This document shows, piece after piece, positions 10,187 to 15,248 of a DNA stretch of 41,595 bases (position 1 is the first letter of the stretch; every line of letters starts with the position of its first letter). Both the position numbers and the translations under genes were made by a program. A model generated the notes under the pieces. It did no database searches. It was given only the letters and a program-made list of their open reading frames with translations, and was not told the DNA's origin. Source of the DNA: a virus (Duplodnaviria; Heunggongvirae; Uroviricota; Caudoviricetes); the IMG/VR virus record IMGVR_UViG_2541047952_000001; one strand, written 5' to 3'.

Positions 10187-10537
10187 TTACTTCAGCCGTT
10201 CACGGGCCGTCTTCGCCTTATGACACGGCCAGCACAAACTCTGCAGATTGCAGTCGGCATCAGTGCCGCCATGCGCTTTAGCGATGATGTGGTCAACGGT
10301 TTTCGCCTCACGCACCACACCAGCACGCAGACATAACTGACACAGGCCTTTGTCACGCTTCAGCACACGCACGCGGATAACATCCCACTTCGAACCATAA
10401 CCGCGCTGATGACGGGACTGACCTGGCTTGTATTGCTTCCAGCCTTCGCTTTTGTGTAGCTCGCAGTAGCCTGATGAATCGGTTGTCGTGTTGCGGCAGC
10501 CTCTTGCTCTGCAAGCCTTTGGTGTGCGTGGTGGCAT
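10187..10537 (-). CDS. HNH homing-type endonuclease
   Basis: 116-aa ORF with several Cys/His zinc-binding pairs (CRARGC...CELH...DHIIAKAHGG...CWPCH) directly upstream of terS. Confidence 0.8.
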   Translation of the reverse strand: MPPRTPKACRARGCRNTTTDSSGYCELHKSEGWKQYKPGQSRHQRGYGSKWDVIRVRVLKRDKGLCQLCLRAGVVREAKTVDHIIAKAHGGTDADCNLQSLCWPCHKAKTARERLK

Positions 10538-11484: not shown

Positions 11485-11742
11485 CTATTGCGAGGATCGT
11501 GATTGCTCAATCGTTCTAATATCTTCTTTATCCCTGTTACACATTCCCAGCGCCCCCATCAGACTCACATTCAGCTCCAGACTGGCACCATACGTCAGCG
11601 GATTAGGTATAAACGGTACAGGAGTATCAGAAGTCAGGCTGGGTGGCAGTGGTGCCACCGGAACGCTCACGTAAACTGTCCGCGTACTTCCGCAACCGGT
11701 CAGCAGCGGCAGCAGGCACAGCACGTGAAGCACAATCATCAT
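11485..11742 (-). CDS. o-spanin (Rz1-like outer-membrane lipoprotein)
   Basis: Internal start MMIVLHVLCLLPLLTGC gives a signal peptide with lipobox LLTGC and a Pro-rich mature part; it begins in the +1 frame inside the Rz-like gene and extends past it. Confidence 0.5.
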   Translation of the reverse strand: MMIVLHVLCLLPLLTGCGSTRTVYVSVPVAPLPPSLTSDTPVPFIPNPLTYGASLELNVSLMGALGMCNRDKEDIRTIEQSRSSQ

Positions 11743-12019
11743 CCGCAACAGCCATTTTGATATCTTCCTGGGTTCTCTGTGACCCCAGTGCGATCTGCTG
11801 TTTTGCATGCTGGTTAGCCTCCAGAACTGTATTGACGATTTGCAGTGATTGCAGGACGTTATTGGTAATGACAGTTGCCGATTTGGCATTTTGTACAGCC
11901 TCATCAGCACGTTTCTTTTCGTGCTGATATTTGCTGTAGTAGTGGTTGGCAGACCAGATGAAAGAACCGATGACAGTAAAGAAGAATGCAGCGATAACCA
12001 ACTTATAGCTCAACTTCAT
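11627..12019 (-). CDS. i-spanin (Rz-like)
   Basis: 130-aa ORF with an N-terminal transmembrane segment (KLVIAAFFFTVIGSFIW) and a coiled-coil periplasmic part, directly after the endolysin gene. Confidence 0.7.
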   Translation of the reverse strand: MKLSYKLVIAAFFFTVIGSFIWSANHYYSKYQHEKKRADEAVQNAKSATVITNNVLQSLQIVNTVLEANQHAKQQIALGSQRTQEDIKMAVADDDCASRAVPAAAADRLRKYADSLRERSGGTTATQPDF

Positions 12020-12479
12020 TTACCACCCCACCAGCCTCTTTAAACCGGGCAATCAGATCACCGATTTTATGTTCATACTGACCGTAACCAGCACCCGGCA
12101 ATGAAGCCCAGATATTGCTGCAACGGTCGATTGCCTGACGGATATCACCGCGATCAATCATCGGCAAAGCGCCACGCTCTTTAATCTGTTGCAATGCCAC
12201 AGCGTCCTGACTTTTGGGAGAGAAGTCTTTCAGGCCAAGCTGATTACGGTAGGCATCCCACCAACGGGAAAGAAGCTGGTAACGTCCGGCGGCTGTTGAT
12301 TTGAGTTTGGGGTTTAGCGTGACAAGTTTGCGAGGGTGATCGGAGTAATCAGTAAACATTTCACCACCGACAATAACATCATAACCGTGGTTACGTGTCG
12401 GTTGTCGCCCGTTATCCGTTCCTTCTGACCATGCAACCATATCCAGGAAAGCTTTACGCTGGGAATTTAGTACCTGCAT
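12003..12479 (-). CDS. endolysin (lambda R-type lytic transglycosylase)
   Basis: 158-aa protein MQVLNSQRKAFLDMVAWSEGTDNGRQPTRNHGYDVIVGG...SLPGAGYGQYEHK, recalled as nearly identical to lambda R. Confidence 0.9.
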   Translation of the reverse strand: MQVLNSQRKAFLDMVAWSEGTDNGRQPTRNHGYDVIVGGEMFTDYSDHPRKLVTLNPKLKSTAAGRYQLLSRWWDAYRNQLGLKDFSPKSQDAVALQQIKERGALPMIDRGDIRQAIDRCSNIWASLPGAGYGQYEHKIGDLIARFKEAGGVVNEVEL

Positions 12480-12482
12480 AAA

Positions 12483-12833
12483 TTACTCCTTAGAGCCACC
12501 AAACTTGTTACCGATTACTCTCATTGCAGCCCCACGAATAGCATCGACACCGATCAACCCAACGCCACCACCAATGGCAACAGAAAGCGATTTAGGCCAT
12601 CCGACATACTCAAGAGCGGATGCAAAAGTCAGCGTCAGAGCGCCGCAGAGCAAAATCTCGAGCGTTTTTCGCTTCCAGCCACCACCACCGCCAAAATAGG
12701 CAATGCGCAAGCCAGCCATAACGATCGACATAATTACTGCGCCCAGCGGTGTGTCTCCACGCCACCAGCTCTGTAACAATTCAAGTAAGTCAGACCAGGA
12801 ATGAGGATCGTTATGCATTTTCATAATTCCCAC
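12483..12833 (-). CDS. holin (lambda S-like, three predicted TM segments; possible dual-start motif)
   Basis: 116-aa ORF directly upstream of the endolysin; N-terminus MGIMKMHNDPH has closely spaced Met codons as in holin/antiholin pairs. Confidence 0.75.
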   Translation of the reverse strand: MGIMKMHNDPHSWSDLLELLQSWWRGDTPLGAVIMSIVMAGLRIAYFGGGGGWKRKTLEILLCGALTLTFASALEYVGWPKSLSVAIGGGVGLIGVDAIRGAAMRVIGNKFGGSKE

Positions 12834-12911
12834 CTCCGGTTATCGGAAGTGCAACGAGTGAAGGGAAAGAAGCTGGTTATAGCGCTGAGTCGCAAAAGTT
12901 GCGTAGTGCAC

Positions 12912-12944
12912 AAAAAAGGCCGCCCACAGGCAGCCTCTTTTTAT
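12912..12944. terminator. hairpin flanked by A-run and T-run (bidirectional terminator-like)
   Basis: AAAAAA-GGCCGCCcacaGGCAGCC-TCTTTTTAT between the Zn-ribbon gene stop (12956) and the holin start (12833). Confidence 0.4.
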
Positions 12945-12955
12945 AATTCATTGAG

Positions 12956-13198
12956 TTAACAACATTTAAATGCTGGTGGTATAGAAGGTTTTTCACCAGA
13001 ACGACAAGCCGGACACCATGACTGAACGATATGCCTTCCGTCTCCCATATCCCTATAACCAAAGTCTATTGTTTTATAAAAAACGTGCACTCCGGCATCA
13101 GCAGAACATTTTGGGCAAGATTTATATTCAACGCCATCTTGTTCAACTTCTCGTGAATAACTTAATGACTGCTCACAAACAGAACAACGCTCCACCAT
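12956..13198 (-). CDS. small Cys-rich (zinc-ribbon-like) protein, first gene after tR'
   Basis: 80-aa ORF with three CxxC pairs (CSVC, CPKC, CPAC) and a terminal CC; RBS AGGAGAG; occupies the Q-to-holin slot. Confidence 0.5.
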   Translation of the reverse strand: MVERCSVCEQSLSYSREVEQDGVEYKSCPKCSADAGVHVFYKTIDFGYRDMGDGRHIVQSWCPACRSGEKPSIPPAFKCC

Positions 13199-13352
13199 AT
13201 ATGCTCTCCTGTTTTTGATAGAGATTTATGGGTAGCAATTCCATTCAAAAGAAACATTGAAGGGTGTCACTTTTTCAAAATGAGCGTAGCTGGCTGCCAG
13301 TTTTTTGTACAACACACTTTAAGGAAGGAGAGCCTTAAAAACACAATTGACA

Positions 13353-13380
13353 TCAATAAAAAACCGCTCGGTGGCGGTTT
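13353..13380 (-). terminator. tR'-like intrinsic terminator downstream of Q
   Basis: Reverse strand reads AAACCGCcaccgaGCGGTTT followed by TTTTTTATT, about 100 nt downstream of the Q stop. Confidence 0.55.
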
Positions 13381-13486
13381 CTTGAAGATTATCAACGGTA
13401 GACACACAAAGCCCATCGTTAGGAGAATCCTAACCAAATTTTTTGAAAAATGCAAGAATCATGTCGCCATCTTCGGCGAAAATCAT
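13381..13486 (-). promoter_or_regulatory. late promoter (PR'-like) and candidate Q-utilisation region
   Basis: Between the Q stop and the tR'-like terminator; contains the perfect palindrome GTTAGGAgaaTCCTAAC (13418..13434) and promoter-like hexamers on the reverse strand. Confidence 0.35.
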
Positions 13487-14266
13487 TTATCTCGTCACTT
13501 TTCTTAATTGCGCCTCAGCATATGCTTCTTCCTGCCAGCACTTTGTCACCAGTTTATCAATGACATCTGCATATCCTTTGTACCACTGATAATCCGTCAG
13601 GTCTGGTACCAGCTTCTGGACATGATGCCGCGCCAGTGTGGTTGGTAAACGGCTAAACCGATTTCCATTGCAACGCCCACAAATCTTATAAACAGGCGTG
13701 CCATGAAGCCGGGTCCTTTTTTCATCCAGGACAATACCTTTACCCTTACACCCTCTGCACGCTGTGCTGACTTCTCCCTTACCATGACAATGCTGACATA
13801 GTTCCTTCACCCACTCTTCCTTGATAACAGATTCCCCGCTTCTGGAGTGTTTCACCACTTCGCGCAATACATTATGAAATCCAGTACCAGCACAATGCTC
13901 ACAGCGAGCCTTACTTGCCGCAGACCTGGAATAATCAGCAAAGGCAAAATTCACAAGGTAAGGAATAATCTGTAGCCGGGTTTCTTCACTCAATTTATTC
14001 AATGTCGGGTTATCCAGTGCCATCGCGTAATTGAGCAGACCTTCAATCGCAAACTGAGGATCCTGAACACCAACTTTTGCCAGGAATAAGGCAAACCCAA
14101 GCGGTGCTTTCGACTGCACCATCCCCTGCGCAGCCATCACATCCGTAATTGTTAAACCACCAGAGCCTGTCGCCGGTGCGTCATCGCTCAATTTTGGAGA
14201 TTTTGGGGAGTAATATTTCGGTAAGGCTTCAAGGTTCATGCTCGTTCTCCACTTACGCCAGTACAC
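13487..14266 (-). CDS. late antiterminator Q (zinc-finger type)
   Basis: 259-aa ORF with Cys clusters (CEHCAGTG...CQHCHGKG...CRGCKGKG...CGRCNGN) directly upstream of PR'/tR' and the lysis cassette. Confidence 0.7.
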   Translation of the reverse strand: MYWRKWRTSMNLEALPKYYSPKSPKLSDDAPATGSGGLTITDVMAAQGMVQSKAPLGFALFLAKVGVQDPQFAIEGLLNYAMALDNPTLNKLSEETRLQIIPYLVNFAFADYSRSAASKARCEHCAGTGFHNVLREVVKHSRSGESVIKEEWVKELCQHCHGKGEVSTACRGCKGKGIVLDEKRTRLHGTPVYKICGRCNGNRFSRLPTTLARHHVQKLVPDLTDYQWYKGYADVIDKLVTKCWQEEAYAEAQLRKVTR

Positions 14267-15248
14267 CTATTGCCAGCGCACGATCGATAAAACGAAATAT
14301 CAGCTCCAGCTGGGAGCCATACTTCTCTTCAAATGCCACGGTATCCGCATGCAGCTCGTCGTGATGCTTTCTGCACAAAGGCAACACAAAGAGGTCATGC
14401 CCTTTTGTTCCCATTCCACCCTGACCGTGACCTATCAGGTGGTGGGGATCATCAGCAGGCTTTCCACAACATGCACACGGCTGTGTCTTAACCCAGCGCG
14501 TGTACTTTTCATTAACCCAGCGGCGACGTTTTGGGCGTAACATAAAAGACTCCGGCGACTCCGGATCCACTTTCAGCGCCAGCACCTTTTTCGCCTTATC
14601 CTGGATGATGCTGGTGGCAGGAACCGAAGGCACAAGGTCACTTTCCCGGGTGACAGACGGCACAACAGGATTCGGTAATCTCAGTGCCTTACGGGCTGCA
14701 CTTTCCGGTAAGGCGTCCGCCAGGTCATTACGAATCAGCCACCAGCACAGTTCCGGCATTGTCACAACGTGACTGTCATCAAAACCGAGATCCCGACGCA
14801 CAACAGACAACACCCAGCGGGCACAGTTATCCGTTGCCATTGATTCCAGCCGTTCCGTGAACTGATCGCGCAGCTGGTTATCGCAGTGCCAGCACAGACG
14901 GATTGCGCCCGGAGCGTGTCGCATTGTTGTCATGTTCTCGCTGTGCCAGTCGGAATGAAGCCACTGGCAGCCTTTTTCACGAAGTAACCAGCTTTCAAGA
15001 CATTCCACGCCACCAGCACGACGGATCACTGCCTCATTGCGGAACACGGCCCGAACGGCAGGATCATCCGCCAGCGGTTGTGATGCCGCGGGAACGGCAC
15101 CACTGGCGAAAGATGAATAACGTTCCGGCTCAGGCTCCAGCAGGACACGCCCCTGCATAAACAAGGGCATCAGCTCTGAACCTGGCCTGAACAATACGAT
15201 CCCCATACGCGGGGCAATTTCAGGGGTCAGTAGTGCTCTCACGGTCAC
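14253..15248 (-). CDS. NinG/Rap-like protein with C-terminal HNH-like zinc motif
   Basis: 331-aa ORF in the nin-type region; C-terminal CACCGKPADDPHHLIGHG...CRKHHDELH resembles the Zn/HNH motif of lambda NinG-type recombination nucleases. Confidence 0.55.
   Translation of the reverse strand: MTVRALLTPEIAPRMGIVLFRPGSELMPLFMQGRVLLEPEPERYSSFASGAVPAASQPLADDPAVRAVFRNEAVIRRAGGVECLESWLLREKGCQWLHSDWHSENMTTMRHAPGAIRLCWHCDNQLRDQFTERLESMATDNCARWVLSVVRRDLGFDDSHVVTMPELCWWLIRNDLADALPESAARKALRLPNPVVPSVTRESDLVPSVPATSIIQDKAKKVLALKVDPESPESFMLRPKRRRWVNEKYTRWVKTQPCACCGKPADDPHHLIGHGQGGMGTKGHDLFVLPLCRKHHDELHADTVAFEEKYGSQLELIFRFIDRALAIGVLA

Follow-up and report, generated by a model that had tools for sequence, protein, structure and literature searches.

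We describe here a gene encoding an 80-amino acid (aa) protein on the minus strand (12956..13198, ATG start; WP_001306866.1, phrog_7682) of the IMG/VR virus record IMGVR_UViG_2541047952_000001, a Caudoviricetes sequence of 41,595 nt, referred to below as the window. The window is an SfV-like Escherichia coli prophage with 99.8-100% identity to NZ_CP062811.1, and the gene occupies the slot between the late switch, constituted by antiterminator Q, promoter PR' and terminator tR', and the lysis cassette. Our results give high confidence that it is a real and dispensable moron of the late operon; the overall reading that we propose, with about even chances of being right, is that the product of this late-operon moron binds nucleic acids, has two zinc sites and serves DNA modification and restriction. 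The architecture of the window is the known cargo plan of SfV and of Stx-type phages, and what is new is the passenger, which comes from an undescribed zinc-ribbon family. In lambdoid phages the Q-to-holin slot carries Shiga toxin (Stx) and other conversion genes, and its other passengers and their expression matter for the understanding of prophage cargo.

The 80-aa open reading frame (ORF) displays the features of a translated and selected gene. A Shine-Dalgarno sequence, AGGAG (13206-13210, minus strand), stands 7 nt upstream of the ATG; the median dN/dS is 0.15 (268 pairs from 56 distinct homologous coding sequences); and an exhaustive profile search retrieved relatives in 277 clusters at 50% identity from several phyla, mostly free-standing proteins of 70-100 aa with invariant cysteines. 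The AlphaFold2 model is confident, with a mean pLDDT of 84. Among 5,426 complete E. coli genomes the gene was found in 24, intact and once in each, and the ORF read through in all five E. coli loci that were translated, four of them unannotated by the Prokaryotic Genome Annotation Pipeline (PGAP). That a chance ORF had been picked up in an untranslated late leader could be argued from the lack of a Pfam match and from the omission of the ORF by PGAP in 7 of the 24 genomes, but the strong ribosome-binding site with its 7-nt spacer, the purifying selection, the breadth of the family and the confident model stand against it, and conservation refutes this reading, to which we give a negligible probability. 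The annotation itself is inconsistent in PGAP/RefSeq: of two records of one assembly sequence, one shows the gene and the other omits it.

The protein contains three CxxC pairs, as noted in a preliminary description of this DNA, namely C5xxC8, C28xxC31 and C62xxC65, followed by C79C80. Within the close family there is little or no variation at C5, C8, C28, C31, H38, C62, C65 and C79. Across 150 diverse representatives the motifs KSCPxCS, FG.R and QS[WYH]CxxCR are near-universal, cysteine is kept at C28 and C31 in 148/148 aligned sequences, at C62 in 142/145 and at C65 in 139/145, and C5, C8 and C79 are cysteines in nearly all sequences aligning at those columns; the family signature can be written CxxC...KSCPxCS...H.FY...FG.R...QSWCxxCR...C. 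Because these Cys and His positions are invariant, the protein would be expected to bind zinc, and its assignment as a zinc ribbon is quite likely. We propose that the protein folds into a compact domain and predict two zinc sites in it, one probably formed by C5/C8/C28/C31 and the other probably by H38/C62/C65/C79.

The profile-database search suggested in the preliminary description returned no Pfam, NCBIfam or PADLOC family for the protein, only sub-threshold generic zinc-ribbon matches; phrog_7682 is a PHROG of unknown function, and the RefSeq name of WP_001306866.1 is 'hypothetical protein'. No match was obtained by tblastn against 50,697 INPHARED phage genomes, the family profile gave no E value below 0.29 against PDB sequences, no significant match to solved or viral folds was found for the protein, and our literature search on the gene and on the Q-to-holin slot yielded nothing relevant. 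The family is thus absent from curated descriptions, and constitutes an undescribed zinc-ribbon family. Weak matches to Zn_ribbon_TFIIB (E = 0.017) and to the FmdB zinc ribbon (E = 8e-4) could hint at an RNA polymerase-binding ribbon, such as an Ogr- or TFIIB-like late transcription factor, or else the protein might be a degenerate beta-beta-alpha-Me (HNH-like) nuclease. We consider both highly improbable: all these scores fall below significance or curated cut-offs, a conserved His-Asn-His catalytic set is missing, with R66 at the position after the last CxxC, and the gene occurs with two unrelated Q families, which speaks against a Q-specific partner.

The late switch upstream of the gene is lambda-like by homology, beyond mere resemblance, as supported by the assignment of Q to PF03589 (E = 1e-53), by its 35% identity to lambda Q (BLASTP, E = 5e-42) and by the column-for-column alignment of the PR' elements. 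PF03589 has been equated with the Q-lambda family by the Ebright laboratory (10.1101/651190). The Q gene (13487..14239, minus strand; WP_015967852.1) encodes 250 aa according to RefSeq, while the mechanical ORF on the same strand reaches 14266, beyond the RefSeq start. Relative to lambda Q, the protein has a Cys-rich insertion of 48 aa; this insertion contains extra CxxC pairs and gives a sub-threshold DnaJ_CXXCXGXG-like match. Between Q and the leader of the 80-aa gene there is a stretch of 134 nt with a promoter and a terminator. In an alignment of the window, lambda, SfV and E. coli E7476, the -35 hexamer, the 17-nt spacer, the -10 hexamer and AACGATGGG fall in the same columns, with AACGATGGG invariant in all four. 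The -35 hexamer TTGCAT (13450..13455, minus strand) is aligned with lambda TTGACT, and the -10 hexamer TAGGAT (13427..13432, minus strand) with lambda TAAATT, SfV TAAGAT and E7476 TAGTAT. It is followed by a -10-like candidate sigma-dependent pause element, AACGAT (13415..13420, minus strand), whose position matches that of the lambda pause element, which we take to be AACGAT as well. The concept of sigma-dependent pause elements has been described elsewhere (PMC9191641).

The intrinsic terminator that the preliminary description had placed downstream of PR' was recovered at 13355..13380 (minus strand) by folding and by homology to SfV. It is formed by the stem AAACCGC/GCGGTTT (13380-13361) and a T-tract that extends to about 13355, folds with -17 kcal/mol (z = -4.6; 0/200 shuffles equally stable) and has an annotated terminator at the homologous site of SfV, where the stem shows a compensatory change. 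A consensus terminator scan missed both this and the second terminator described below, as their T-tracts pair into the stems; both were identified by folding the sequence directly. A short RNA of ~65 nt is predicted from PR', and the proposed arrangement of PR', short RNA and tR' is supported. A further hairpin, TCGCCgaagaTGGCGA (13464..13479, minus strand), lies between the stop codon of Q and the PR' -35 and has no T-run after it; it is kept in SfV and E7476, and lambda displays the form TTGCCacggaTGGCAA (TTGCC/GGCAA), with a compensatory C:G to T:A change. The palindrome GTTAGGAgaaTCCTAAC previously singled out in the promoter region is indeed present at 13418..13434 (a strand-independent feature) and overlaps the -10 hexamer TAGGAT (13432-13427), the transcript start and the first bases of AACGAT (13420-13415), but no significance can be attached to it as an operator or regulatory site: perfect palindromes with 7-bp arms and a 3-nt loop occur at chance frequency (3 in the window vs 2.6 in shuffles), and this one is not conserved, being lost in SfV (TAAGAT) and E7476 (TAGTAT).

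The late cassette of lambda comprises Q, a PR' with QBE and sigma-dependent pause element, the 6S RNA and tR'. When compared with it, the window shares a homologous Q, an alignable PR' -35, -10 and AACGATGGG, a terminator before the late genes and a lysis cassette of the S/R/Rz type. The differences are the length of the leader RNA (194 nt in lambda, ~65 nt here), the 48-aa insertion in Q, and the presence of a cargo gene and a second terminator between tR' and S. The gene order in the direction of transcription is DUF968/HNHc_6, Q, PR', tR', leader, 80-aa ORF, terminator, holin, endolysin and Rz/Rz1, so that the first ORF past tR' is the 80-aa gene and not the holin, as had been stated, and all genes of the region are carried on the minus strand.

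The comparison with SfV reveals how the gene sits in this backbone. The end of Q, PR' and tR' are near-identical in both (~92% identity) and the homology stops right past the T-tract of tR'. In SfV the late order is Q, terminator, orf47, orf48 (a DNA methyltransferase), terminator and S; the same prophage backbone holds a cargo that is bracketed in both cases by tR' and a second terminator before S. The cargo differs, since a small ORF resembling a winged helix-turn-helix (HTH) protein and an N6_N4 methyltransferase stand in SfV where the window has the 80-aa zinc-ribbon gene, and no homology was found between the second terminators of the two. The Stx-converting phages use the same Q-to-holin slot and the same Q-dependent logic with a toxin as cargo, which the gene described here is not: in phiSTEC1575-Stx2k the synteny from PerC through DUF968 to Q is kept, and tRNA genes and stx2AB lie between Q and the holin, which bears out the earlier identification of this position with the Stx slot. 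Because SfV and the Stx2 phages share Q, PR' and tR' yet carry other genes in the slot, we regard the 80-aa gene as dispensable cargo. In agreement, a region of 801 bp gave partial matches in 1,150 E. coli genomes, of which only 24 contain the gene.

Gene and terminator move together as one unit. The GC content of the unit is 40%, compared with 47-55% in the flanking genes. The downstream hairpin attributed to the gene was found 14 nt past its stop codon, as a second intrinsic terminator (12912..12942, minus strand; hairpin 12942-12912, -19.6 kcal/mol, z = -4.2), and of 55 distinct homologue loci, 42 have a terminator 15-45 nt past the stop codon, irrespective of the gene that follows. The stems of these terminators vary compensatorily (GGCTGCC/GGCGGCC, GGCTCAC/GTGGGCC, GGTTCGC/GCGAGCC, AGCCCTGGC/GCTGGGGCT). 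E. coli E7476 has the unit as well, with the gene, its terminator and the ~124 nt of leader closest to the gene. There, two hypothetical genes of 335 and 187 aa, neither matching Pfam or NCBIfam, stand between tR' and the zinc-ribbon unit (L113:2272-3855 in our set of loci) and are closed by a terminator of their own. Among Enterobacterales the gene always lies between Q and the lysis cassette, although the Q may belong to either of two unrelated families (PF03589 or PF06530) and the holins represent three families or more, and additional genes are sometimes found between the 80-aa homologue and the lysis genes.

The position of the gene suggests how it would be expressed. The AT-rich leader (13199..13352, minus strand; 155 nt, 37% GC) contains no sigma-70 promoter on the coding strand according to a consensus scan, and displays a weak promoter-like TTGTAC-18-TACGCT at the left edge of its conserved part. 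No consensus pairs were obtained by RNAalifold for 20 leaders, indicating no conserved RNA structure, whether sequestering the Shine-Dalgarno sequence or otherwise, and an Rfam scan of 12700-13700 gave nothing near any gathering score. In our interpretation, a moron-type unit, consisting of AT-rich leader, 80-aa gene and terminator, has been inserted between a lambda-type late switch and the lysis cassette. Given that the gene lies downstream of tR' and that the search for a dedicated promoter gave no credible candidate, most of its transcription should come from RNA polymerase that Q has made resistant to terminators, and it would be the first late ORF to be read; judging from the anatomy of the region, the polymerase would next pass the terminator of the gene into the holin, endolysin and Rz genes, and without Q the two terminators in series would keep the lysis genes silent. 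Morons, as Juhala, Hendrix and co-workers are said to have defined them in 2000 for HK97 and HK022, are extra genes with their own promoter and terminator. The unit in the window resembles the morons of lambdoid phages in its presence or absence among close phages, its deviant GC content and its own terminator, and differs from them in that the window has no convincing promoter belonging to the unit, PR' apparently being borrowed in relatives.

Clues on function come from the wider family. The domain is found fused at the N-terminus of HNH nucleases, whose HNH part is McrA-like according to PDB sequence matches, at the N-terminus of a NOV_C / PD-T4-1-like restriction endonuclease domain, and at the C-terminus of a DGQHR DndB/DpdB-like protein; fusions to an XRE HTH and to DUF3553 also occur. 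PADLOC matches were restricted to the fused partners (DpdB/DndB, PD-T4-1 and mREase_IV). In 11 of 17 distant loci, belonging to Firmicutes, Bacteroidota and other metagenome-assembled genomes, a Dam-family methyltransferase lies within 3.4 kb; most often the two genes belong to one operon, which also encodes DpnII or a DUF6996/6997/7226 protein and often a second N6_N4 methylase. These Dam-associated loci display at least five different architectures. One of these operons, L035:3827-6255 (also seen in L034, L044, L046 and L047), consists of a Dam-family methyltransferase, a DUF6996/DUF6997/DUF7226 protein and the zinc-ribbon gene, with a convergent N6_N4 methyltransferase; the DUF6996/DUF6997/DUF7226 protein (432 aa), on which a literature search found nothing relevant, may be a GATC restriction enzyme that has yet to be characterised. 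The zinc-ribbon gene adjoins the late methyltransferase of the SfV type in several lambdoid loci.

What the fusions and the neighbouring genes share is a connection with DNA modification and restriction. Based on these fusions, and on the free-standing distant homologues in Dam/DpnII-type operons, the protein is most likely a nucleic-acid-binding, and probably DNA-binding, double-zinc module with an accessory or regulatory role in DNA methylation and restriction. Taken by itself, a role tied to DNA modification or restriction is held tentatively, at somewhat less than even chances. The domain is the same as the N-terminus of McrA-like HNH type IV enzymes and as the separate small gene of the operons with Dam and DpnII (or DUF6996/6997/7226); the protein of the window differs from these systems in being the bare domain, with no adjoining nuclease or methylase. 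Several observations weigh against the proposed role. No gene adjoining the 80-aa gene in the window encodes a methyltransferase or a nuclease, the nearest being an N6-adenine methyltransferase of the nin region ~3.6 kb away; the adjacency to late methyltransferases in lambdoid loci may only mirror a common cargo slot; the association with restriction-modification rests on distant homologues (30-50% identity); and contacts with RNA or with other proteins would be just as plausible for the domain.

One alternative takes as its model Com of phage Mu, a 62-aa zinc-finger protein that activates the translation of the DNA-modification gene mom. According to this alternative, the 80-aa protein would be a Com-like RNA-binding zinc ribbon that activates translation of a late DNA-modification gene, or that acts otherwise on the late transcript. 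The source records of two homologues use the name 'phage FluMu protein Com', the N-terminal CxxC-x19-CPxC resembles the CxxC-x16-CPRC of Mu Com, a Cys4-type ribbon, both proteins are small and late, and both are associated with DNA-modification genes. However, Mu Com lacks the second conserved half of the 80-aa family (H.FY..FG.R..QSWCxxCR) and no significant sequence relationship was found. PF10122 (Zn_ribbon_Com) matches Mu Com (2.7e-9) and no family member tested, including the two named Com, and the hhalign probability is 7%, so that membership in the Mu Com family is rejected. Nor is a modification gene found downstream in the window, where the next gene, past a terminator, is the holin (only some relatives have a methyltransferase there), and the RNAalifold analysis showed no conserved structure in the leaders. 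A Com-like function is thus unlikely.

The neighborhood of the holin raises the question of a lysis-associated factor, for instance a regulator of holin timing, since the holin is the next gene in many loci and belongs to at least three families. An intrinsic terminator separates the two genes, however, and in many loci other genes are interposed (methyltransferases, or ORFs of 140-350 aa). Further, no membrane segment is predicted in the 80-aa protein, lysis by SfV, SfII and lambda does not require the gene, and the distant homologues are found in restriction-modification operons with no lysis genes nearby. We regard a contribution to lysis as very unlikely, and a function that is neither lysis nor structural is the best explanation of the data.

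A different arrangement of the gene was observed in relatives with a Q of the Q21/933W family (PF06530). In 31 distinct loci of this type, 1-2 kb of antisense cargo directly follows Q, then a conserved block, CTAACGCGTACGCAAAAACTATCGTAAcCTGTTAAGAGTGG (L002:4846-4890 and 30 other loci), and the zinc-ribbon gene ~150 nt further on. The antisense cargo includes, as examples, an M78 peptidase with an HTH protein, GmrSD with HEPN, RelA_SpoT with NA37, and two hypothetical genes in SfII and Stx2a_WGPS2; the interval between Q and the putative PR' of these phages and prophages looks like an insertion hotspot (L002-L006, L073, L114, L115). The block, which displays a direct ACGC repeat and a TGnTAAGAG motif, is the putative PR', Q-binding and pause region of a Q21/933W subfamily. 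It is also found in SfII (L115:2005-2090) and Stx2a_WGPS2 (L114:2505-2590), where no other intergenic DNA separates the late genes from the antisense genes, and where the next ~70 nt contain a terminator hairpin; by virtue of this position and of the hairpin, it is most probably the PR' of that Q type. A PF06530 Q is present in all block-bearing loci with enough flank, and the block was found in none of the loci of the Q-lambda type. In 27 of the 31 loci with the zinc-ribbon gene, no terminator was detected between block and gene by the same detector that finds tR' in SfII and Stx2a_WGPS2, and the first terminator is the one after the zinc-ribbon gene.

In Stx phages PR' is constitutive (PMC7547250). 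Considering this, and the missing terminator between block and gene, the Q21/933W-type relatives should make the protein in the lysogen. There is a precedent in StxS, a small RNA derived from PR', which illustrates that something functional can be made from the constitutive PR'-tR' leader (PMC7547250); the product of the stretch from PR' to the first terminator would in these relatives be a protein and not a small RNA. If this holds, the gene would be an example of the use of an always-on PR' leader for expression in lysogens. The window does not have the Q21-type layout, as tR' precedes the gene, and a remnant of the Q21-type PR' block in its leader was sought with nhmmer and dismissed (E = 0.48, not significant). 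If the weak promoter-like TTGTAC-18-TACGCT were active, the gene might be expressed in the lysogen in the window too.

Another alternative is a conflict factor expressed in the lysogen, acting in superinfection exclusion, anti-restriction or restriction alleviation in the manner of Ral/Lar, for instance as a free copy of a defence-nuclease domain that works as a decoy or a dominant-negative. Consistent with this alternative, in the 27 of 31 Q21/933W-type relatives the placement between the PR' block and the first terminator would make the gene constitutive in lysogens, the domain is common to McrA-like, PD-T4-1-like and DGQHR defence proteins, and the neighboring cargo often comprises defence genes. 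Against it, tR' precedes the gene in the window, so that this alternative fits the Q21-type relatives better; the protein has no PADLOC match and no significant similarity to Lar or Ral (Lar_restr_allev, E = 0.63, in one homologue), and an anti-restriction protein would be expected early rather than late. We consider such a role rather unlikely. A more specific combination, to which we give a low probability, is that the family is a previously unrecognised zinc module tied to DNA methylation, as a reader or as a regulator resembling Com, and that Q21/933W-type prophages translate it from the RNA made constitutively from PR' up to the first terminator. Were this true, it would be a protein-coding counterpart of lambda 6S RNA and StxS, present in every lysogen and over-produced when Q fires, and it could couple the state of modification and restriction to the late programme or protect the progeny DNA. 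Either a DNA-methylation-linked regulator or an anti-restriction factor would constitute a new accessory component of restriction-modification biology. The more interesting leads would seem to lie outside the window: one is the apparent location of the gene, in most relatives, ahead of the first terminator past PR', and the other is the probable tie of the family with Dam/DpnII restriction-modification systems and modification-dependent nucleases.

The neighbouring genes are likewise on the minus strand. Upstream of Q lies the DUF968/HNHc_6 gene (14253-15248). The lysis cassette is composed of a holin of the lambda S family (12483..12824; Pfam PF05106, E = 5e-28), a lambda R-like endolysin of the GH24 type (12003..12479) and, after the endolysin, Rz/Rz1 (11627-12019). 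The holin starts with ATG-AAA-ATG (Met-Lys-Met; 12816-12824), which is the dual-start holin/antiholin motif of lambda S. Farther along, a 116-aa HNH endonuclease (10187-10537, minus strand) is encoded directly before a P27-family small terminase, an arrangement corresponding to HK97-type packaging, and the presence of a tail-sheath gene in the prophage indicates an SfV-like morphogenesis of the myovirus type.

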